Below are positions 1-52,046 of a stretch of 53,840 bases of DNA, piece after piece. A program made the translations under genes and the position numbers. This stretch comes from a virus (taxonomy: Duplodnaviria > Caudoviricetes): positions 1 to 53,840 of IMG/VR virus record IMGVR_UViG_3300019360_000004; one strand, given 5' to 3'. Numbering within the stretch: position 1 is the first letter of the stretch; each line of letters begins with the position of its first letter. Under the pieces are notes generated by a model. It did no database searches. It saw only the letters and a program-made list of their open reading frames with translations, and had not been told where the DNA came from.

Positions 1-123
1 AACCAAAATGCATGATGAGTGTACCCCCGGCAGTGAGGCCGAGCAGGTCTATTGTGCGGCCAAGGCCTTCGACGGGTGGGATCTGGCGAGTGTGTTTGTC
101 ACCTTAGATCCGCCGTTGCGCAC
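1..123. repeat. Terminal direct repeat, left copy (circular assembly overlap)
   Basis: Bases 1-123 are identical to 53718-53840. Confidence 0.97.
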
Positions 124-187
124 AGTGTACTATTGGGAGAAAGACGGGATTTATAGTCTATAGCATGTTTATTTATTACGAGGACAT

Positions 188-736
188 ATGATTCCCAATA
201 ATGGGAGTGGCCCCGGTATTACCGCGATGGCACAGCGGCGTGAGGAGATTGCCCGCCGGTATTTACAAGGGCAATATCAGTCACAAATTGCGCGAGACAT
301 GGGCATCACCCAATCGGCGGTGAGTCTGGCGCTGAAGAAGATTCGCGCGGAGTGGTTGGCTTCGTCCCTGCGTAACTTTGACGCCCTCCAGGCCGAGCAG
401 CTCGCGAAGATCGATCTCGTCGAGGTCGCAGCGTGGGAAGGGTGGGCGCGGAGTCTGCTTCCCCGCGAGGTCTCGGTGACGGAAGCAACCGAGGGGAAGG
501 CGCAGCCGACCGTCCGGAAAGCGAGTCTGCGTCGGGAAGGCCAGGCGGGTGATCCACGTTTCCTGGTTTGTGTACAGAAATGTATCGATCAGCGTATTGG
601 CATTTTGGGCCTGGGGGCGGAGCAGGAGGCGTTGCAGCAGGCCGCACAAGGGATTTCCGTCGTTTTGGAGCAGGCACGGCAGCTGGCGGCAAAGCCCGTG
701 GCCACGTCCCCAACACCACCAATGGCAGAGGCATAA
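188..736 (+). CDS. terS: Terminase small subunit (HTH)
   Basis: N-terminal HTH (QSQIARDMGITQSAVSLAL), GDPRFL motif, RBS GAGGA, upstream of terL. Confidence 0.75.
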   Translation: MIPNNGSGPGITAMAQRREEIARRYLQGQYQSQIARDMGITQSAVSLALKKIRAEWLASSLRNFDALQAEQLAKIDLVEVAAWEGWARSLLPREVSVTEATEGKAQPTVRKASLRREGQAGDPRFLVCVQKCIDQRIGILGLGAEQEALQQAAQGISVVLEQARQLAAKPVATSPTPPMAEA

Positions 737-36695: not shown

Positions 36696-37073
36696 TCATA
36701 TTTTCGATAAACGAGTCACAATGGCTGGCCAGTCGCTAGGCCGCCACACTGCGCACTCTTGTCCTGCATGTTCCAACAAGGTCAGCCAGCGCGCCTGCGC
36801 CGCAGTTAGCTTACCGGTCGCCGTTTTCAGCTCGACAAACAGCACGCTTGTGCCATTGGTTAACACAAGGTCGGGGAACCCCTCAGGGCTGCGACGCGAA
36901 TCATGCGTGTGGTACGCCAGCCAGCCGTAAGATTTGGCGAGTGCAAGCACTTCATTCAGCAACTGCACTTCAGTCTGTGTCACAGGCAGCGAGGTCTCGA
37001 GGAGCGTTGGCCGGGGAATGCGCGCTAACCAGGCTGTATACTCGGCATCGCTCCAATGCAGACCGGGGCTCAT
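36696..37073 (-). CDS. VRR-NUC domain nuclease
   Basis: HDSRRSPEGFPDLVL...FVELK..GKLTAAQ..W. Confidence 0.9.
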   Translation of the reverse strand: MSPGLHWSDAEYTAWLARIPRPTLLETSLPVTQTEVQLLNEVLALAKSYGWLAYHTHDSRRSPEGFPDLVLTNGTSVLFVELKTATGKLTAAQARWLTLLEHAGQECAVWRPSDWPAIVTRLSKI

Positions 37074-37489
37074 TGTTTCTCCTCCCAGAATCCTAATTGT
37101 GGACTCTCGACCAATCGCAAGCAATGTGGCGACAGCCATAGACGCTCACGGTGGGCTTGATGCCCCTCTGCGCCACGTATGCCACCCCGGAGAAAGCCCT
37201 CGTGGAACTACTCCATGACAGCTCATCCATGCGTCTCCGCATCACGTCTCCTTCTGCGGTCACTCCATCATCTGATCGTCAGTCCACAACCAGACAGCGC
37301 CAATTGTTGAGGCCGGGCGCACGATGCAACGCAGCCCCAAAGGCGAATGGCTCATCTTGTTGTGTATTCTGAATCGACATGGCCATTAGGCCGATAGCGC
37401 TTTGTGCGTGGGTGTCGATTCCACAAGTGTGGTTCCCCTTCCCCTTCATAGGCCAGCGCCGCTGCCAGAGCGACGTAGGGGTCATTGTA

Positions 37490-40188: not shown

Positions 40189-40935
40189 CTAGAAGGGAGG
40201 CGCATTATCGTTGGCGGCCCGCCGCTTTTGATCGGCCATCCCGTCAGCGCCCATCGTAGGGACCGCCCGCCCTGGGGTCATGGACCGGAAGAGCGGCGGC
40301 GCATGCAGCGGGGCGCCGGCCTCGTACCAGGCGGCTTCCGCAAGCCAGTCCTCCCGATCCTGCGGATAGCGCGTGGCATGAAGTCGACAGACCTCGGCCG
40401 CACGGCGGTCTTGTTCTTCCGGAGGGAGGTGTTGGATGGCGAAGAACAGTTCGATATGCCCCGATGCCCAGGGTGATTGCTCTGCCTTGGCCGCCTGAGT
40501 GAGGGCAGTCCCTACCGCGAGGCCCTGGGCGCGTTGTTGCCGTTCCTCCTCCGCACGTTGAGCGATCTTGTCATACGCCGCGTGCATCGCCTGGATACCC
40601 TGTCGTCGTCCTTCGGCCCAACTGAGTAGGGCCCCCGTAGTGGCATCGGCCATGCCGCTATAGGTGCTGATTTGCTCGTAGACCCAACTCAGGACGCTGC
40701 GAATCGTCTCGCGCGCACGCTCGGGATCGTTCGGTAACCACCGATGCAGATAGGTGGTCAGATGGGCTTCTAAGGCTGGGACACCTTTCTGTTCAGCGAG
40801 CGCGAGATAATGAGCGTGTCGTGCGCGCGCGCCGGCGGGACTGAGCGTCTCTGGTGTTTTGATACACAGCAGACAGTCGTCTGGTATACTCAGCGTCGAT
40901 CCTACGGCGTGATTATTGTCGGTGCGTTGAGGCAT
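40189..40935 (-). CDS. Replication-associated hypothetical protein
   Basis: AAAGGAG RBS; directly downstream of the initiator. Confidence 0.5.
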   Translation of the reverse strand: MPQRTDNNHAVGSTLSIPDDCLLCIKTPETLSPAGARARHAHYLALAEQKGVPALEAHLTTYLHRWLPNDPERARETIRSVLSWVYEQISTYSGMADATTGALLSWAEGRRQGIQAMHAAYDKIAQRAEEERQQRAQGLAVGTALTQAAKAEQSPWASGHIELFFAIQHLPPEEQDRRAAEVCRLHATRYPQDREDWLAEAAWYEAGAPLHAPPLFRSMTPGRAVPTMGADGMADQKRRAANDNAPPF

Positions 40936-41860
40936 GAGTCTGTCTCCTTTGGTATTCGTAGTTACGGTGGAGCCACCCGCGAACAAAGCGTTTCCACCCT
41001 CCGGGACTTGCGGGACGTTTGCGGGGATTCTCACGGAGGTAGGCCGAGAGTTTGCCAAACTCCGCGTTGAGCCAGGGTTGACCAAAGACACCAGCAAGGG
41101 CTTGTGAAATATCTATCCACCAGTCCGCATCATTAAGCGCGTCGAAATCGAGCAATGTATAGTCGAGTAGAAGGGCTCGGAGCCAATCATCTTGGGGAAG
41201 TGGGTTCAATGAAGGGCGGCGAGTGGTGCGGGGGTAGTGCGGTTCAGGCATTTTCATCAGGGGTAGCATAGGCGTAGAGTCTGAAGGGATAGGCGGAATG
41301 AAAGGTTCGTGCCTTTCATCTCCGCCTAAACTCCTGAACGTAGTGAAGGAGTTTTCTTCTTTTTCTAGAAGATCTTCTCTAGAAGAATTCTCTAGAAAGA
41401 GTTCACGTGGTGCACTACGTAGTTCACCAGATGCACTAGGTGGTTCACGTGGTGCACTACGTAGTTCACCAGATGCACTAGTAGTGTTTATACTAGGTGG
41501 TACATCTGGTGTACTACGAAGAGAAAGTTCATCCATTTTCTCAAGGGTTGTGCTCAAGGGGAGCGATAATAAGGTATAGATGTTTTCTTCATGATGTCCC
41601 GCTCTAGCGACACGTTGGCTTTTGGCAAGAAGGTGGTGTACGGTTAAAGTTTCAAGAGTTTTGAGAATGGTGTTGCGTGAGATATGCAGTGTGCGGGCCA
41701 GAGTGGTCAGCGACGGTGTTGCATGGCCCTCGCGATCCGCATAACGAGCGAGGGCGGCATAGACGGCAATGCCATAGGCCCCAATCTGTGGGCCATAGAT
41801 ATCAACGATGATATCATGGATCCAAAACCAATGAGCTTCACGGCGGTCGCGGATTTCCAT
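40913..41860 (-). CDS. Replication initiator (N-terminal winged HTH, lambda O-like layout)
   Basis: AVYAALARYAD...PSLTTLARTLHISRNT...NIYTL; internal iterons. Confidence 0.8.
   Translation of the reverse strand: MEIRDRREAHWFWIHDIIVDIYGPQIGAYGIAVYAALARYADREGHATPSLTTLARTLHISRNTILKTLETLTVHHLLAKSQRVARAGHHEENIYTLLSLPLSTTLEKMDELSLRSTPDVPPSINTTSASGELRSAPREPPSASGELRSAPRELFLENSSREDLLEKEENSFTTFRSLGGDERHEPFIPPIPSDSTPMLPLMKMPEPHYPRTTRRPSLNPLPQDDWLRALLLDYTLLDFDALNDADWWIDISQALAGVFGQPWLNAEFGKLSAYLRENPRKRPASPGGWKRFVRGWLHRNYEYQRRQTHASTHRQ
41401..41516. repeat. Iteron-like 21-bp repeats, probable replication origin
   Basis: GTTCAC-N4-TGCACTA at 41401, 41422, 41443 and 41464; degenerate copy near 41500. Confidence 0.75.
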
Positions 41861-41991
41861 CGTGACCTCCACGCGAACCTGGTGTGCGGGAGTGGCGGCG
41901 CGGCGTGCGGGTAGGTTAGTTCCGCCAGATGCCTCTGTTGCCGCGCCGTGATGAACAGCCGTTGCTGTCCGGGCGAACAGCAACGGCTCTC

Positions 41992-42020
41992 AGTATAGCA
42001 CGCCAGGTGAGGAATGTACA
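41992..42020 (-). promoter_or_regulatory. Promoter for the replication operon
   Basis: TGTACA-17 bp-TATACT with extended TG. Confidence 0.55.
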
Positions 42021-42039
42021 TGTTTTTGCCGAAAAAAAA

Positions 42040-42048
42040 TGCTAGACT
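42040..42048 (+). promoter_or_regulatory. Extended -10 promoter for the Xre-csf operon
   Basis: TGcTAGACT upstream of AGGAGG. Confidence 0.4.
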
Positions 42049-42071
42049 TGTGTAGGAGGTGACGATGAGTA

Positions 42072-42344
42072 ATGAGTGAGATAGAGATTTTCTCGAATCT
42101 GGATATGCGGCAATTCGCGGCGCGATTGCGCGCCGCTCGGGAGCGAGCGGGCCTGACACAGACCCAGGTCGCGCTGTTTGCGGCACTGAATCTGGGCAAT
42201 TATAATGAGCTGGAATGTGGCCATAAGCCTGGCTTGCGTGCGACGACGCTCTACCGGCTTTGCCAGGTATTGCGCGTCAGCGCCGATGATCTGCTCGGGT
42301 TTGATCTGCCCATGGCGGCGCTCGCGGGGGAGACTGAGGCATGA
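42072..42344 (+). CDS. Xre/Cro-C1 HTH regulator
   Basis: RLRAARERAGLTQTQVA...LRVSADDLLG. Confidence 0.9.
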   Translation: MSEIEIFSNLDMRQFAARLRAARERAGLTQTQVALFAALNLGNYNELECGHKPGLRATTLYRLCQVLRVSADDLLGFDLPMAALAGETEA

Positions 42345-43237
42345 GCCCGTTGCATCAGCAAGTCAGCGCTGCCGTGTCTCTGCTCCCTCCCATCAGTCAT
42401 TTTTTGGCCCCTGATGCGCCAGCCGGCCCGGCGACGGGCCAATGTGGCGTGTGTGGGGTCACCACAGCGGGTATGTACCCGCGCGCCACGGTGCTCGATA
42501 CGACGGGGAGCAATATCACCACCCTCTTTCCCCACAACACGCCTTACATGTGCCGCCATTGTACCGCGCTGTGGAAACGGCCCAAGCACTGGCATCGAGG
42601 GATCTTTGCGACGGCCGAGACCACCTATTTCCCGCTGATTGCCGACAATGAGCACCGGAGCGCAGACCGCCCGCTTTGGCGCGATCTCCTCTGCACGCCC
42701 GGTTGCTGGCATGAGAGGCCCCGCGCCTGTGTCCTGACGACAGACCCCAAAAAACGTGTCTGGCCACACGCGCGGGTCTCGCAGGGGGCACGGCTCCTGC
42801 TCTATCTCCATGATCCGACTCGCGGTGTCAGTGGCAATCGGTGGGTCACCTGGGAGCGCCTGGCACAAACCCTCGCGCTCGTCGAGCAGGCATATGCGTT
42901 GGGCGCAGCCAAGGCGCAGATTGCCGAGACGCTGTATACGCCTAGGCTCCTGAAAGCCCACGGCTTGGCCCCGTTGCAGACGCTGGAAGTGGTGCTCCGG
43001 CAGGTCCGACATCTGCCGGAGTTTCTCCCGGCGCTGATTGTGGCGCAAAAACCTCCTGAGGAGACCCTGCATGCTGATACGTCCGCAGACCGACCGCATA
43101 CTGCTCCACCTGGAGTTGACCACCAGCTTGGCACACGGCGAGGCTGGTGCCAATCGCGTGGGGCCGAGCAACTTGAGCTTATTGCACCGGCAGCTCGCGC
43201 TCCTGCCGGTGAGTGCGAGTGCGAGCCTGGCGGGTGA
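42341..43237 (+). CDS. csf1: Type IV-B large subunit Csf1 (Cas8-like)
   Basis: CGVCG...CRHC zinc finger, DPKKRVW, YALGAAKAQI..LY..LKAHGL and ALIVAQK; first gene of the csf cluster. Confidence 0.75.
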   Translation: MSPLHQQVSAAVSLLPPISHFLAPDAPAGPATGQCGVCGVTTAGMYPRATVLDTTGSNITTLFPHNTPYMCRHCTALWKRPKHWHRGIFATAETTYFPLIADNEHRSADRPLWRDLLCTPGCWHERPRACVLTTDPKKRVWPHARVSQGARLLLYLHDPTRGVSGNRWVTWERLAQTLALVEQAYALGAAKAQIAETLYTPRLLKAHGLAPLQTLEVVLRQVRHLPEFLPALIVAQKPPEETLHADTSADRPHTAPPGVDHQLGTRRGWCQSRGAEQLELIAPAARAPAGECECEPGG

Positions 43238-44507
43238 CCCCCTCCTTCGCATTAGCGCAACGCTCAACCTCTTCCTGGTCGGTGATCAGGTGTTGCCCTT
43301 TCTTGATGCGCTGGATGGCCCCCAGGTGCTCGCCTGCCTGCTCGTCAGTCTGTTCCCCCAGATATACAGCGGCGAGGATGGCGAGGGCGTGGGCCTGTTT
43401 AGCGGGATGCAACGCTATCAATACCTAAGCACGCGACTCGGGGACGCTGTGGTCTCGTGCACCACCCTGGGCGAGTTGTGGGCGGTCGTGAGTCGCCATC
43501 TAGGCTTGCCGCATCCGGTGGAGGAGTGGCACGCGCCGCTGCTCGCCTTGTGCACGCTGCTGCCCCAGACACAGGCGGCAGTCATGCACGCGCTGCGACA
43601 GACGTTGCCGCTCCTCATGATGGGGGGGCGGGAAATCGCCGAGTCCGTCAAGTGCTGCAATCCTCGCTATGCCACCCGGGCCTCCAGGCCCCTGCAACAG
43701 GCCGTCGTTCCCACGCTTTCCGATGCCCAGCGTGCTACGTTTCAGCAGGCCCTGCCTGAGCGGCAGGCCGTCCTCCTGCCAGCGCTGAGTGGGAATGCGT
43801 TGCGCCATGTGCTCCTGCGGGCACCCGGCGCCGTGCGGCTGCTTCAGGCCCTAGGATTGGATCCGCAGCACGACGCCGTGCCGGTGGGCGTTGAGCGGTT
43901 CCTGTTTGGCGGCGGCAACACGGCGGCCAAAGTCAGCACGCCGAGCAACGCGGATCTCCTGGAAACGACCGTGCGCGCCCGCTATCCATTCGTGGATGCC
44001 CTGGGCGGGGCCGTGGACCGTTTCTTGTTCAGCCGCAGTCAGGTGGCCATCGCGAGTTGGATCGTCTGTCGCGAGCACAATGCGGCTACCGAGGAGATTG
44101 CCGGACTCACATCGCAGGTAAGTCTCCTTGATACGATCTACGAGGAGACCCGCACACGGGCCGGGATTGGGGGCAAGGATGCTGCGAGTGGCCAGATGAT
44201 TTTTAGCTACGAGGTTTTGCCCCTCGGCACACAGGTCCTGGTCGAGATCCGTTTCCAGCCCTGGACGTCGCCACGCACGAAGGGGGCTATGCAGCAGGCC
44301 GTGCAGGATTGGTACGCCAGCGGGGCGTGTCTCGGAGCCAAAAATGCGCAGGGACATGGCGTCTGTCGAGTGCTCCGCGCCGAACTTCCCTATGCGCAGG
44401 AGGCCGCAGACTATCTCATCTCTCTGGAGACCGAGCGGGAGGCGTTGGCGGCAGGTCTCCGAGATGCCACGTTTGGCACAGGAATGGTGTTATGCGCCCA
44501 GATCTAG
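43071..44507 (+). CDS. csf2: Type IV-B Cas7 (Csf2) with a large internal Cas11-like helical insertion
   Basis: LELTTSLAHGE, LPALSGNALRHVLLRAPG, FLFGGG, QMIFSYEVL and G-loop LGAKNAQGHG; GAGGAG RBS. Confidence 0.82.
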   Translation: MLIRPQTDRILLHLELTTSLAHGEAGANRVGPSNLSLLHRQLALLPVSASASLAGDPLLRISATLNLFLVGDQVLPFLDALDGPQVLACLLVSLFPQIYSGEDGEGVGLFSGMQRYQYLSTRLGDAVVSCTTLGELWAVVSRHLGLPHPVEEWHAPLLALCTLLPQTQAAVMHALRQTLPLLMMGGREIAESVKCCNPRYATRASRPLQQAVVPTLSDAQRATFQQALPERQAVLLPALSGNALRHVLLRAPGAVRLLQALGLDPQHDAVPVGVERFLFGGGNTAAKVSTPSNADLLETTVRARYPFVDALGGAVDRFLFSRSQVAIASWIVCREHNAATEEIAGLTSQVSLLDTIYEETRTRAGIGGKDAASGQMIFSYEVLPLGTQVLVEIRFQPWTSPRTKGAMQQAVQDWYASGACLGAKNAQGHGVCRVLRAELPYAQEAADYLISLETEREALAAGLRDATFGTGMVLCAQI

Positions 44508-45229
44508 CCCATCGTGATCCCCTCGATGCCTATGGCGCGCTGTGCGCCACGTTGCCGCATACGCCCCTGCGCGTAACCGTGCAGACGCTGACGCCGGTGG
44601 TCAGCCTTGATCTGCTCAATTTCGATGGCCTTCTGGCCAAAGCGATGGTCCTTGCCACCTGGGGCACGGGCGTGTTCCCCGCCTCGGAGTCCCCTTACTG
44701 GCTCCCTCTGCCGCTGGCATACACGGAGCATGTCGGGCTGCCTCTGTGGCACGCCACCACGCTGTTCCGGGTAGGCGGGGCGGAGGGTGCGACGCATTAC
44801 CATAAGCGCACCGAGGACAATCCATACAGCCTTCTGGCGATCCGCCCGGCGCTTGGGCAGCGCCGCCCACGCCGGCAGCCCTCCACCGCGGCAGGGCAGT
44901 ACATGAATTACCGCATTCCTGAGCCCTATCAGGTGGCGGAGTATTGGGAGTGCCTGTGTCTGGGGCATGCCGGGGAGCTTGCGCGCTTGCTGCCGTATCT
45001 TCAGGGGATCGGGAAAGATTGTGCCCAGGGCTACGGACGTATCCTGGGATGGACCGTGGAGCCGCATGACGGGCCGCTGGCCCCTGACGACACCGACGAG
45101 GTCTGGCGGCCTACACCGACGACCACAGTGACTGGTGTCCTGAGCGGGTGGACGCCTCCCTATTGGAGACGCGATCTATGGTTGCCTTGCCGTGTACCCT
45201 CGCTGACTGGGCCGCCCTGGGCATCATAG
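44492..45229 (+). CDS. csf3: Type IV-B Cas5-like (Csf3)
   Basis: LNFDGLLA, HYHKR, GQYMNYRIP, G-loop GIGKDCAQGYG and PPYW. Confidence 0.82.
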   Translation: MRPDLAHRDPLDAYGALCATLPHTPLRVTVQTLTPVVSLDLLNFDGLLAKAMVLATWGTGVFPASESPYWLPLPLAYTEHVGLPLWHATTLFRVGGAEGATHYHKRTEDNPYSLLAIRPALGQRRPRRQPSTAAGQYMNYRIPEPYQVAEYWECLCLGHAGELARLLPYLQGIGKDCAQGYGRILGWTVEPHDGPLAPDDTDEVWRPTPTTTVTGVLSGWTPPYWRRDLWLPCRVPSLTGPPWAS

Positions 45230-45999
45230 GGCAGGTGCATTATGGTCAACCGGCGCGTGCCCTGCCGTATCGGCGGGTCATTGAGTGTAAGACCTCGGCG
45301 GCGGTGGCACTGATTGCCGACTGGTGGGACAAGGTAGAGGGTCACGGTTATGTCGCTCTCTCCTTTGGCAAGGATAGTCTCGTGACTTGGCATCTGGCGC
45401 AACAGGTGGCGCCGATTCCGGCCGTGTTTGTGGCTCTTGGGCCGTTGGGCGACTGGCCCGACTGTTTGCAACTCAAAGAGGTGCTGCGTGCCGAGCATGA
45501 CTTGTCCGTGATCGAGGTTCCGGCGGTCCCGAGTCATTATGACCGCCTAGTCTTGCAACAGCGCTCTGGCCATCACCAGGGCTGGTCGACGTGTGCCGAA
45601 ACGACGGAGCGGTTTCACCACGAGCAGCCGCAGTGGCGCGGACTCCTTTGGGGCTTGCGTGGAGTCAAAGAGCCGCATCGAGAGGGTATCCATCGTGAAA
45701 TCCTTTTTCACACCCATGGCCTCCTGTACCAGCGCGCCTCGGATAGGCGGTGGGTGGGGGCACCGGTCGGCTGGTGGAAGAACCCCGAGATCTGGGCGTA
45801 CATTGACCTGCATGGGTTACCGTATCCGGCCATGTATGATGTTGATCGGGCGCGGATTCGGAATGGACCGCCTTTCACATTTCCGGGGGAAGCTGTCGGG
45901 CGGATCCGGAACATCCGCCGAGCGTTTCCCGAGATCTTCCGGATCGTCCTCAGTCTGGTACCTGCCGACTATGCCGCGCGGCTCTCACGACAGGCCTAA
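45178..45999 (+). CDS. cysH: CysH-like PAPS-reductase-family protein
   Basis: PP-loop SFGKDS, WGLRG and PVGWWKNPEIWAYI..HGLPYPAMYD. Confidence 0.85.
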   Translation: MVALPCTLADWAALGIIGQVHYGQPARALPYRRVIECKTSAAVALIADWWDKVEGHGYVALSFGKDSLVTWHLAQQVAPIPAVFVALGPLGDWPDCLQLKEVLRAEHDLSVIEVPAVPSHYDRLVLQQRSGHHQGWSTCAETTERFHHEQPQWRGLLWGLRGVKEPHREGIHREILFHTHGLLYQRASDRRWVGAPVGWWKNPEIWAYIDLHGLPYPAMYDVDRARIRNGPPFTFPGEAVGRIRNIRRAFPEIFRIVLSLVPADYAARLSRQA

Positions 46000-46058: not shown

Positions 46059-46285
46059 CTGTTTCGGCGTAGCCCTCCACGTCTCCCCGTGACGGACCGT
46101 CACCAATTTGCCACCCCATCGACATTGGTTGCTGTAATAGATTTCATGGAGACCTCCTTAGGGTGTAAACAGCCGCTGTTGGCTGAGCCATTCAGCAACG
46201 AGCGCGGGATCGAGATATTTGTCGGCCATCCGATGGAGAACGACCCGTTGTTTTGGTGTGGCCCTCCACCTCTCCCCGTGACGGA
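46059..46285. repeat. Imperfect ~38-bp direct repeat (46059-46096 and 46248-46285)
   Basis: gccctccac(g/c)tctccccgtgacgga core. Confidence 0.75.
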
Positions 46286-46370
46286 GGGTCGATTCGAGAA
46301 AGTCGATCTCCCAATCTGTGAGTGGGATAGCAACATTGTCGAGCTCTTGTAAGAGGTCATGATCGGTCAT
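46158..46370 (-). CDS. Hypothetical protein
   Basis: LTDWEIDFLES...TPKQ pattern. Confidence 0.6.
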   Translation of the reverse strand: MTDHDLLQELDNVAIPLTDWEIDFLESTLRHGERWRATPKQRVVLHRMADKYLDPALVAEWLSQQRLFTP

Positions 46371-51399: not shown

Positions 51400-51825
51400 T
51401 TACGCCTCTCGGAGGGCGGCCAGGAATCCACCGCGTCGGGCAATCAGCGCCTTCGCTTCCCGCAGGTAGGGAGCGAGTGGCTTCTGGGTCGTCGTGTTGA
51501 TGTGCACGATGATCGCGGTGGGCAGTACTTCGTGGTCGAGGTACGTCGCCACGTCCGCCGCGAACTGCTCCCAGGGCCGGTTGCCACGGACGCTATTGCA
51601 GTGGTGACAACACGTCACCAAGTTTTCGGGGCCATTGTCGCCGCCGTGGCTGTGCGGGGTCAGGTGGTCGAGGGTCAGTTTGATGCCGTCCTCGATGCCC
51701 TGGCCGCAATAGGCGCAGGCGAGGCCGTCGCGGAGGTAAATGGCTAATCGTTTGCCTGGCCGAATCCAGTTCATCCCTTGACCCTGTCCGTTGCTTTTCT
51801 GATGACGATCCAGTATGCTATGCAC
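51400..51825 (-). CDS. HNH endonuclease
   Basis: RDGLACAYCG..LDHLTP..GG..NLVTCCHHCNS. Confidence 0.9.
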   Translation of the reverse strand: MHSILDRHQKSNGQGQGMNWIRPGKRLAIYLRDGLACAYCGQGIEDGIKLTLDHLTPHSHGGDNGPENLVTCCHHCNSVRGNRPWEQFAADVATYLDHEVLPTAIIVHINTTTQKPLAPYLREAKALIARRGGFLAALREA

Positions 51826-51884
51826 GATTGTTTCTCCTGTGCTTTCAGAGGGAATGTGAGACTCAGGAGCCCTAGGTACTGTCC

Positions 51885-52046
51885 CTACCTGGGGCTCTCC
51901 TGTGTGTGCTGTCCGACAGGTTGCTGCGGCGGGCGGGCCGCCCATTCCGCTTCGATCCTCCGGATGTGTTCGTCCTCGATGTGCTTATACCAATCGCTGG
52001 CGCCCTTCCGTTCCTGCTTGTGGCCGGTCACGTGGCCATGCTTCAC
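51885..52046 (-). CDS. Small first gene of the early operon
   Basis: GGGAGG RBS and GTG start. Confidence 0.5.
   Translation of the reverse strand: MKHGHVTGHKQERKGASDWYKHIEDEHIRRIEAEWAARPPQQPVGQHTQESPR

Follow-up and report, generated by a model that had tools for sequence, protein, structure and literature searches.

A predicted array-less type IV-B CRISPR-Cas cassette on a tailed phage carries Cas11 as a domain inserted in Csf2

Results

A five-gene operon in a complete phage genome

The virus record IMGVR_UViG_3300019360_000004 of IMG/VR (53,840 bp; the whole of this stretch is called the window here) is a complete genome, as an earlier reading made from the letters alone (the sequence-only reading) had claimed: it carries a 123-nt terminal repeat and CheckV gives it 100%. 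We analyzed an operon of five open reading frames (ORFs) at 42072-45999 of this genome. We are close to certain that the operon is a horizontally mobile effector cassette of type IV-B of the CRISPR (short palindromic repeats, clustered and regularly interspaced)-Cas systems, that it lacks an array and is borne by a tailed phage, and that it encodes Csf1, a single-chain Csf2 with an inserted Cas11, Csf3 and a CysH-like enzyme. Its features are the following.

42072..42344, plus strand: Xre-family helix-turn-helix (HTH) regulator, 90 aa (Pfam HTH_31 2.3e-8, above cut-off), coupled to csf1 via ATGA
42341..43237, plus strand: csf1, Cas8-like large subunit (PADLOC typeIV_Cas8 Csf1_0_IV 3e-11, residues 22-241)
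43071-44507, plus strand: csf2, whole, 478 aa
43071..43208, plus strand: N-terminal segment of csf2, residues 1-46, the first two strands and the loop matching the Csf2 'catalytic loop'
43209..43754, plus strand: predicted Cas11 domain inserted in csf2, residues 47-228 (profile, fold and homologue matches)
43755..44507, plus strand: RNA-recognition-motif (RRM) core of csf2, residues 229-478 (PADLOC typeIV_Cas7, 7jhy_e, Foldseek)
44492..45229, plus strand: csf3, type IV Cas5 (PADLOC typeIV_Cas5 Csf3_0_IV 4.2e-32)
45148..45999, plus strand: CysH-like PP-loop enzyme, CasCysH-like (Pfam PAPS_reduct 5e-8; 33.6 bits, cut-off 22.5)

The five genes run against the minus-strand early arm, between minus-strand genes at 40913-41983 and 46158-46370, and each overlaps the next, which agrees with the inverted, overlapping arrangement described before. 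The HTH gene and csf1 share 4 nt (ATGA, 42341-42344), csf1 and csf2 share 167 nt (the csf2 ATG at 43071 is preceded by GAGGAG), csf2 and csf3 share 16 nt, and csf3 and cysH share 82 nt, provided that the GTG at 45148 is the start.

Csf2 contains a predicted Cas11 domain

The Csf2 protein matched PADLOC typeIV_Cas7 at 5e-21 over residues 242-471, and its RRM core matched 8rc3_D in Foldseek at 7.1e-7. A profile of the Csf2 family aligned colinearly with Csf2 of the solved type IV-B complex (7jhy_e, 1.9e-8) over three stretches, residues 9-38, 226-314 and 374-460. The AlphaFold (AF2) model, with a predicted local distance difference test score (pLDDT) of 83, has two N-terminal strands (9-16 and 38-46), nine helices (57-203) and the RRM core. 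By VIA-align, residues 8..463 of the model were aligned with 18..288 of 7jhy_a (Z 14.5, root-mean-square deviation (rmsd) 3.2 Å, 221 of 228 residues) and residues 8..476 with 1..344 of 7xg0_D (Z 17.5, rmsd 3.9 Å, 256 aligned); since these alignments span the model from residue 8, the first strands belong to Csf2.

Several comparisons link the intervening segment to Cas11. PADLOC typeIV_Cas11 models matched it inside the Cas7 ORF (2.3e-4, 4.3e-4 and 2.8e-3), residues 112-197 of the Csf2 family profile matched the Cas11 chain 7jhy_h (5.3e-3), and a profile of the insert only (13 sequences, 172-179 aa) matched the same chain at 7.1e-4. An AF2 model of the insert by itself (pLDDT 88.7) aligned with Cas11 7jhy_g at Z 9.9 (rmsd 2.9 Å, 119/143 aligned), the next row being at Z 5.3, and a Foldseek search with the insert alone placed the same chain at rank 1 with probability 0.92, yet an E-value of 0.44. 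Furthermore, hhalign matched the insert to 20 stand-alone small proteins with a probability of 99.9% (E 7.6e-35), and typeIV_Cas11 models hit nine of the ten such proteins that were tested. In a weaker control, hhalign of the insert with 15 stand-alone Cas11 proteins from more distant viral loci returned a probability of 4.3% (E 0.0094), so the link between insert and Cas11 was made via the closer stand-alone proteins. In addition, where the nearest relatives have a split Csf2 (281-284 aa), it aligned to residues 1-~45 and ~229-478 with one gap of ~185 residues, and the separate cas11 genes of these relatives are homologous to the insert. Taken together, the sequence comparisons and models indicate that cas11 is present as a ~180-residue domain inserted in Csf2 after its first two strands. 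The order Xre-csf1-csf2-csf3-cysH given by the sequence-only reading therefore stands, but the absence of cas11 from that list does not.

The fused form is widespread. Among 43 proteins found with Csf2::Cas11 (E <= 0.001, the phage's own included), 42 were 463-488 aa long with end-to-end coverage. With the insert profile, 206 proteins at E <= 0.001 were retrieved from 1.84 billion representatives; the best 150 of these comprised 94 of at least 400 aa, 46 shorter than 200 aa and 10 between, and some of the 46 short ones are fragments of fused proteins. By these lengths, conservation of the fused form extends to at least 94 clusters of proteins at 50% identity.

The other proteins of the operon

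A Zn-finger large subunit, two RAMP (repeat-associated mysterious protein) genes, an SxGKDS PP-loop enzyme and an Xre regulator had been proposed from the letters, and all of them were recovered with profiles. In Pfam, the regulator and the PP-loop enzyme scored above their cut-offs and the three middle proteins had no match.

Csf1 carries the motifs C35-x2-C38 and C71-x2-C74, and its alignment (A4) has 18 invariant columns among 11 sequences. Its conserved part covers residues 1-~240, to ~43060, of an ORF of 298 aa, the last ~55 residues being an out-of-frame run across csf2 (43061-43237). Csf1 homologues terminate 2-6 residues past an AQK motif, and the phage csf1 is without that stop. One related csf1 (L006:9270-10076) carries a similar extension past AQK. 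The Csf3 alignment (A5) has 26 invariant columns. Against the NCBIfam equivalogs, Csf1 reached 16 bits (TIGR03114, 0.0068) and Csf3 45 bits (TIGR03116, 9.1e-12), both against a cut-off of 140.

The PP-loop of the CysH-like enzyme, SFGKDS, lies at residues 72-77 (nt 45361-45378). In an alignment (A3) of ten proteins from fused and split viral loci, S72, G74, D76, S77, G169, R171, E179 and R183 were invariant, and no C-terminal Cys was conserved among the ten sequences. The best solved relatives of a profile of ten homologues were 3'-phosphoadenosine 5'-phosphosulfate (PAPS) reductases (2o8v, 2.1e-13) and CysD, and there was a weak match to Cap9 (9nto_B, 5.4e-4). The enzyme scored far from a bona fide PAPS reductase, with 21.6 bits against 154 for PRK02090 and 19.5 against 165 for TIGR00434. 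PMC8175902 describes CasCysH as resembling ATP alpha-hydrolases and as lacking the reductase cysteine, and the phage enzyme agrees with that description in its intact PP-loop and its lack of this cysteine. A complex prediction with Csf1(1-240), Csf3 and a CysH partner, run without controls, scored 0.15 against a mark of 0.32.

The HTH protein further matched PADLOC capH (1.1e-6) and a PHROG transcriptional regulator (3.1e-9), and the G+C content at third codon positions (GC3) of its gene, 0.67, is nearer the cassette value than its neighbours'. Inspection by eye only suggests a winged-helix-like extension at the N-terminus of the csf1 ORF in L011, L012 and L035, and a small upstream ORF resembling an HTH in L013.

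Assignment to type IV-B

No CRISPR-like array was found in the phage genome by TRF, a repeat finder or a k-mer scan, nor in any fused-form relative locus. A six-frame search of the genome gave no Cas1, Cas2 or Cas6 (PF01867, PF09827, PF01881, PF10040, PF09559); the PF09559 part of this search is weak, as 0/14 control genomes gave a signal, while hmmscan did detect the family in L005. Helicases of the DinG-like or RecD-like kind were likewise not found, with no Helicase_C_2 or AAA_30 domain in the genome. Thus csf1, csf2, csf3, cas11 and a cysH-like gene were found, and a helicase, Cas6, an adaptation module and an array were not. The presence of cas11, which separates types IV-B and IV-C from IV-A, takes the form of a domain rather than a gene, and the features of types IV-A, IV-D and IV-E (DinG or RecD helicase, Cas6/Csf5, array) were absent. 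The type IV-B assignment of the sequence-only reading is upheld by these results, since four Csf-type components and the CysH-like gene were matched by profile and fold, and the operon fits the definition of the subtype in PMC7038947 and PMC8175902. That reading was also right about cas1, cas2, cas6 and the array but wrong in seeing no nuclease in the genome, which encodes an HNH endonuclease and a VRR-NUC protein, neither of them in or next to the operon.

Two repeat pairs of the window were considered as mini-arrays and rejected. A 42-nt direct repeat, 86% identical (46060-46101/46249-46290), lies directly downstream of cysH, and its copies encode similar peptides in the minus-strand frame; a 70-aa ORF (46158-46370) contains the second, and a short or disrupted copy contains the first, which identifies the pair as a probable duplication of a paralogous gene fragment at the cassette edge. 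The other, an exact 20-nt pair at 53367-53386/53438-53457, is without a hairpin and sits among promoter-like sequences.

Relatives and spread of the cassette

Relatives carry L-numbers here; labels such as L018 denote viral or metagenomic records, and L049 is the Skermania phage SPI1. Single-protein scans of viral and metagenome contigs gave nothing, and alignment-based profiles were required. The first profile found 29 loci in IMG/VR, 13 of them fused. A genome collection of 185,579 species gave one match, on a 7-kb contig of a metagenome-assembled genome (MAG). The fused protein falls in an ESM Atlas cluster of 117 members; of the members for which there is a record, 90% are viral. The fused lineage was thus seen mostly on viral contigs. 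The operon had no blastn match among GenBank phages. By tblastn, Csf2::Cas11 had no match in 50,697 phage records and one weak match (25% identity, E 7e-4) in 72,556 plasmids. Its nearest homologues (P0002-P0006, 61-62% identical) were not placed on contigs and stand outside the cassette comparisons.

Csf2 cores, stripped of the insert, were placed in a maximum-likelihood tree. This tree holds 38 rows (19 fused, 19 split) and leaves out L010, L012, L028, L043 and L046-L048, which are cut, interrupted or duplicate, and L037-L039, which are from the same record as L005. The fused forms occupy one side of a branch with support 91/82, and a single change was needed in 94% of bootstrap trees. Their sister group is formed by four close split loci (L032-L034 and L036; 99/99 for the joint clade), in which the gene order is csf1, cas11, csf2 (281-284 aa), csf3. 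These results are compatible with a single origin of the fused form, although a single gain is unproven because the root is a midpoint root only.

Every related record that extends far enough keeps csf1, csf2::cas11 and csf3 syntenic. Of 24 fused-form records, 21 carry a CysH-like or PP-loop gene, and the remaining three (L006, L042 and L043) end at or just past csf3; in eight records the order is csf2, cysH, csf3. Outside the cassette, only three phage ORFs matched related loci, weakly, at 26-30% identity: the terminase and portal (L011/L012) and a methyltransferase (L005). No flanking synteny is shared with the related loci, and these comparisons therefore indicate that the cassette moves between otherwise unrelated phages.

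Several relatives carry additional or different genes. Two fused cassettes that are 96% identical have a Cas6 gene (PF09559, 4.3e-43) between csf3 and cysH (L005:5605-6228 and L044:4343-4963), and a search of the 17-kb record with L005 gave no array. A split locus has QueC (PF06508, 6.6e-54) and a 248-aa ORF between csf1 and cas11 (L033:3549-4993), with no tblastn match to a CysH-like gene in L033. In three loci, radical-S-adenosylmethionine (SAM)-like ORFs of 449-493 aa follow csf3 in the CysH position (L019:11864-13315, L021:11513-12994, L025:7227-8576); Radical_SAM is under the Pfam cut-off in these ORFs, and the B12-binding or N-terminal domain is at or just above it. A family-2 (GT2) glycosyltransferase (2.5e-8) lies between cysH and csf3 of a fused cassette (L035:3497-4171). 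In L046, csf2::cas11 is broken inside its conserved GLFSG..RYQY motif by ~1.36 kb with a 413-aa ORF (L046:8642-10001), perhaps through insertion of a mobile element. One viral contig has, ~7 kb upstream of its split type IV-B locus, a pair of exact 37-nt repeats (L018:3014-3123) that contain a hairpin-capable palindrome and flank a 36-nt spacer; the pair resembles a CRISPR mini-array.

A split version was also found in a cultured phage. In Skermania phage SPI1 (KR011061.1, 32609-36242), Orf40-44 correspond to Csf1 (PADLOC 1.9e-28), Cas11 (5.9e-15), Csf2 (1.2e-66), Csf3 (2.1e-36) and a fifth ORF with an SGGKDS PP-loop, all five being annotated as hypothetical proteins. SPI1 is the sole GenBank phage record matching a split viral Csf2, and none of the GenBank phage records matches the closest split relative of the fused protein. 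PADLOC confirmed the type IV-B identity of L021, L024 and SPI1.

Composition and integrity of the operon

No other 3.9-kb stretch of the genome is as G+C-rich as the cassette (63.5% against 54.7% elsewhere), a bias that also speaks for its mobility, and GC3 is 0.67-0.76 in the five operon genes against 0.46-0.59 in flanking genes. This atypical composition, the lost csf1 stop with its 167-nt run into csf2 and the interruption of csf2::cas11 in L046 would fit a recently acquired cassette that is no longer functional in the phage, decaying or neutral cargo. We consider this very improbable: all five ORFs are intact with coupled starts, every invariant family residue that was checked is present (the phage being the reference row of alignments A1-A5), and L006 shares the csf1 extension.

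Expression is expected from the following region.

41984..42071: intergenic region with presumed divergent promoters, flanked by the HTH gene and by the replication-initiator-like gene of the minus strand

A promoter-like site was found on the minus strand at 42020-41992. The operon's own promoter in this region is only inferred, because a promoter scan gave no plus-strand consensus promoter there.

The carrier phage

The plus strand encodes large terminase, portal, major head and head-maturation proteins and a 1349-aa tape measure between 1.8 and 31 kb. The minus-strand arm codes for a DNA methyltransferase, the replication-initiator-like protein (40913-41983), an Erf-like annealing protein, a DUF5131 protein and the two nucleases.

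51400-51945, minus-strand arm: HNH endonuclease gene, outside the operon and not adjoining it
36696-37139, minus-strand arm: VRR-NUC gene, outside the operon and not adjoining it

Pfam matches among 20 early-arm ORFs were limited to DUF5131, VRR_NUC and a weak DUF4862, and searches of the genome gave no tRNA and no tyrosine or serine recombinase. The terminase reaches no more than 39% identity with any of the 50,697 GenBank phage records, and on this comparison the carrier is therefore taken to be a new tailed phage. The sole taxon label among relatives belongs to L002, a 7-kb contig in a Proteobacteria MAG bin, which is a weak pointer to the host.

About four tandem 21-nt units with an iteron-like look lie at 41400-41485, ~600 bp away from the operon and within the replication-initiator-like gene of the minus strand. 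The non-coding DNA ahead of the terminal repeat holds the exact 20-nt pair mentioned above and a 24-nt pair (53506-53529/53551-53574, 83% identical), which stand among TTGACA-like hexamers; both pairs are probably operator or packaging sites.

Discussion

A proposed mechanism and its alternatives

We put at roughly 55% the probability that the best overall explanation of these data is a type IV-B cassette acting through a guide supplied in trans together with the CysH-like enzyme. In this mechanism, Csf3 and Csf1 would cap a helical Csf2::Cas11 filament built on an RNA of fixed length. The RNA would be supplied in trans as a host CRISPR RNA (crRNA) or other small RNA, the phage having no array. 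With its own Cas11 on each backbone subunit, the minor filament lining the target-binding face would always be complete, which argues for a complex that still engages complementary nucleic acid and does more than take up RNA. The CysH-like enzyme, with an intact PP-loop and no thiol for reduction, would draw on ATP for the adenylation or other modification of the bound nucleic acid or of a nucleotide, and the phage would deploy the complex against host defence or competing mobile elements. RNA binding and the position of Cas11 are taken here from the solved Mycobacterium complex and not from the phage proteins. Taken by itself, the guide-in-trans plus enzyme mechanism is a tentative proposal to which our analysis gives somewhat less than even odds. 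Borrowing or sequestering of crRNAs, a non-CRISPR guide and nucleotide chemistry by CysH, which the sequence-only reading had offered as ideas, already appear as hypotheses in the literature.

In the solved complex from the megaplasmid of Mycobacterium sp. JS623 (7jhy), six Csf2 and five Cas11 subunits are assembled on heterogeneous RNA of ~55-60 nt, and each Cas11 lies on a Csf2-Csf2 interface, makes no contact with the bound RNA and bears a basic patch typical of target-side small subunits (PMC7937560). Assembly on heterogeneous RNA would also suit an RNA sponge or anti-CRISPR (Acr), in which the filament coats host crRNAs or other guides that are then left unused, RNA-guided defence is disarmed, and CysH is accessory or modifies the captured RNA. 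A sponge was raised in PMC7038947 and applied to a virus in 10.1101/2023.08.02.551345; a system carried by the phage without its own array, and two relatives (L005 and L044) with Cas6 and no array on record, are in keeping with it. The strict conservation and covalent fixing of a Cas11 that, in 7jhy, is off the bound RNA and has a target-side basic patch are hard to explain by this idea, and so is the near-universal link to an enzyme. The authors of PMC7038947 deem so complex an Acr unlikely, and we likewise regard a sponge as unlikely.

The enzymes themselves bear on a different alternative, a guide-independent scaffold. Here the filament would form on phage or host transcripts or other RNA as a structural or regulatory particle, and the real effector would be the chemistry of CysH, a nucleotide signal or a modification such as one against restriction, for which no base-pairing target would be required. 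PAPS-reductase-like enzymes occur in DNA-modification defence: the CysH of L024 matched BrxP at 1.6e-5, and CasCysH is compared to DndC in PMC8175902. CasCysH has also been proposed to AMPylate substrates or make second messengers (PMC13676074). Accessory enzymes, moreover, swap around one Csf core. What speaks against a mere scaffold is that the complete set of Cas5, Cas8-like and Cas11 parts is kept under selection. Elsewhere in class 1, such parts have roles in capping the guide and binding the target. We therefore hold the scaffold to be doubtful.

Among the viral relatives, the common theme is a Csf core with an RNA-processing or modifying enzyme (Cas6, QueC, radical-SAM-like, GT2). A bolder form of the proposed mechanism is that the filament is a guide-borrowing, RNA-directed platform that takes up small RNAs from the host or another source in trans, base-pairs with a complementary target along the Cas11 face built into it and delivers the PP-loop enzyme, or QueC, a radical-SAM enzyme or a glycosyltransferase in relatives, to modify the target. 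This would be a long shot, but if true it would make phage type IV-B an RNA-guided nucleic-acid-modifying system, neither nuclease-based nor silencing.

Several observations count against the guide-in-trans and enzyme mechanism or against parts of the assignment behind it. The solved type IV-B complex bound RNA without sequence preference and showed no crRNA enrichment in the account of PMC7937560, which fits a sponge or non-guided role equally well. No CRISPR-like array, RNA partner or conserved non-coding element was found in the window, where Rfam likewise gave no family at its gathering score. At the putative catalytic Asp42 of Csf2 (7jhy), the phage has Ser and the family consensus is Asn, in a low-scoring segment of the alignment; because of this replacement, cleavage of target RNA by the Csf2 backbone is unlikely. 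The phage CysH is without an 11-residue stretch found in its four closest homologues in A3 (L002-L005). No homologue of the Xre gene was found by tblastn beside the cassette of any relative, and its role may therefore be local. The NCBIfam equivalogs for Csf1, Csf3 and CysH all scored far under their curated cut-offs, and on these scores we regard the three proteins as true yet very divergent members of type IV.

Significance

Type IV-B is the one CRISPR-Cas subtype whose function was still called unclear in a 2026 paper (PMC13676074). Our results suggest that it is not just a plasmid feature, as a large and mostly viral lineage has a four-gene cassette that appears to hop between unrelated phages. 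Welding Cas11 into the backbone would lock the stoichiometry and argues for a functional need of the Cas11 face, and the exchange of enzymes or addition of Cas6 in viral relatives narrows the plausible mechanisms. A single-chain backbone would give a three-protein ribonucleoprotein and ease reconstitution, while the cultured Skermania phage SPI1, with its unannotated split version, offers a genetic system. The Cas11-in-Csf2 variant could help to work out what type IV-B does.

Comparison with known systems

Like the JS623 system, the phage operon has Csf1, Cas11, Csf2, Csf3 and a cysH-like gene, and no array, Cas6, helicase or adaptation genes. The folds match JS623 Csf2 (Z 14.5) and Cas11 (Z 9.9), but identity in the structural alignments is 17-18%. 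The phage differs in having Cas11 inside Csf2, at a ratio of 1:1 rather than six Csf2 to five Cas11; furthermore, its carrier is a tailed phage instead of a megaplasmid, and an Xre regulator heads its operon. The split loci (L032-L034, L036 and the more distant L016-L031) and SPI1 share the gene set and order of the phage, but their cas11 is a separate gene of 130-190 aa upstream of a csf2 ORF of 280-400 aa (first listed start).

A fusion of Cas11 and Cas7 in one chain is also seen in type III-E gRAMP/Cas7-11 (7y84), to which the phage protein has a weak Cas7 fold match (Z 9.4). The phage chain, with one Cas7 and one Cas11 domain, must still polymerise, whereas gRAMP is one large protein with several Cas7 domains, a monomer acting on crRNA from an array. 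The two fusions are independent events in different types.

Type IV-B systems on virus genomes have been described in the Fuxivirus of Bathyarchaeia (PMC10848311) and in a 41-kb Methanoperedens virus (10.1101/2023.08.02.551345). As far as these descriptions allow a comparison, both are likewise complete or near-complete genomes with csf1, cas11, csf2, csf3 and a cysH-like gene; the Methanoperedens virus is also without a nearby array, and Fuxivirus has a two-repeat mini-array. Both differ in being viruses of archaea, and their cas11 is described as a gene of its own. [quoted passage not shown] The only type IV fusion mentioned in the accessible parts of PMC7038947 and PMC8175902 is csf1-csf3, and our literature search found no published description of Cas11 inside Csf2, though supplementary tables might hold cases. 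Array-less, phage-borne type IV-B is thus already known in kind; the Cas11-in-Csf2 architecture is new.

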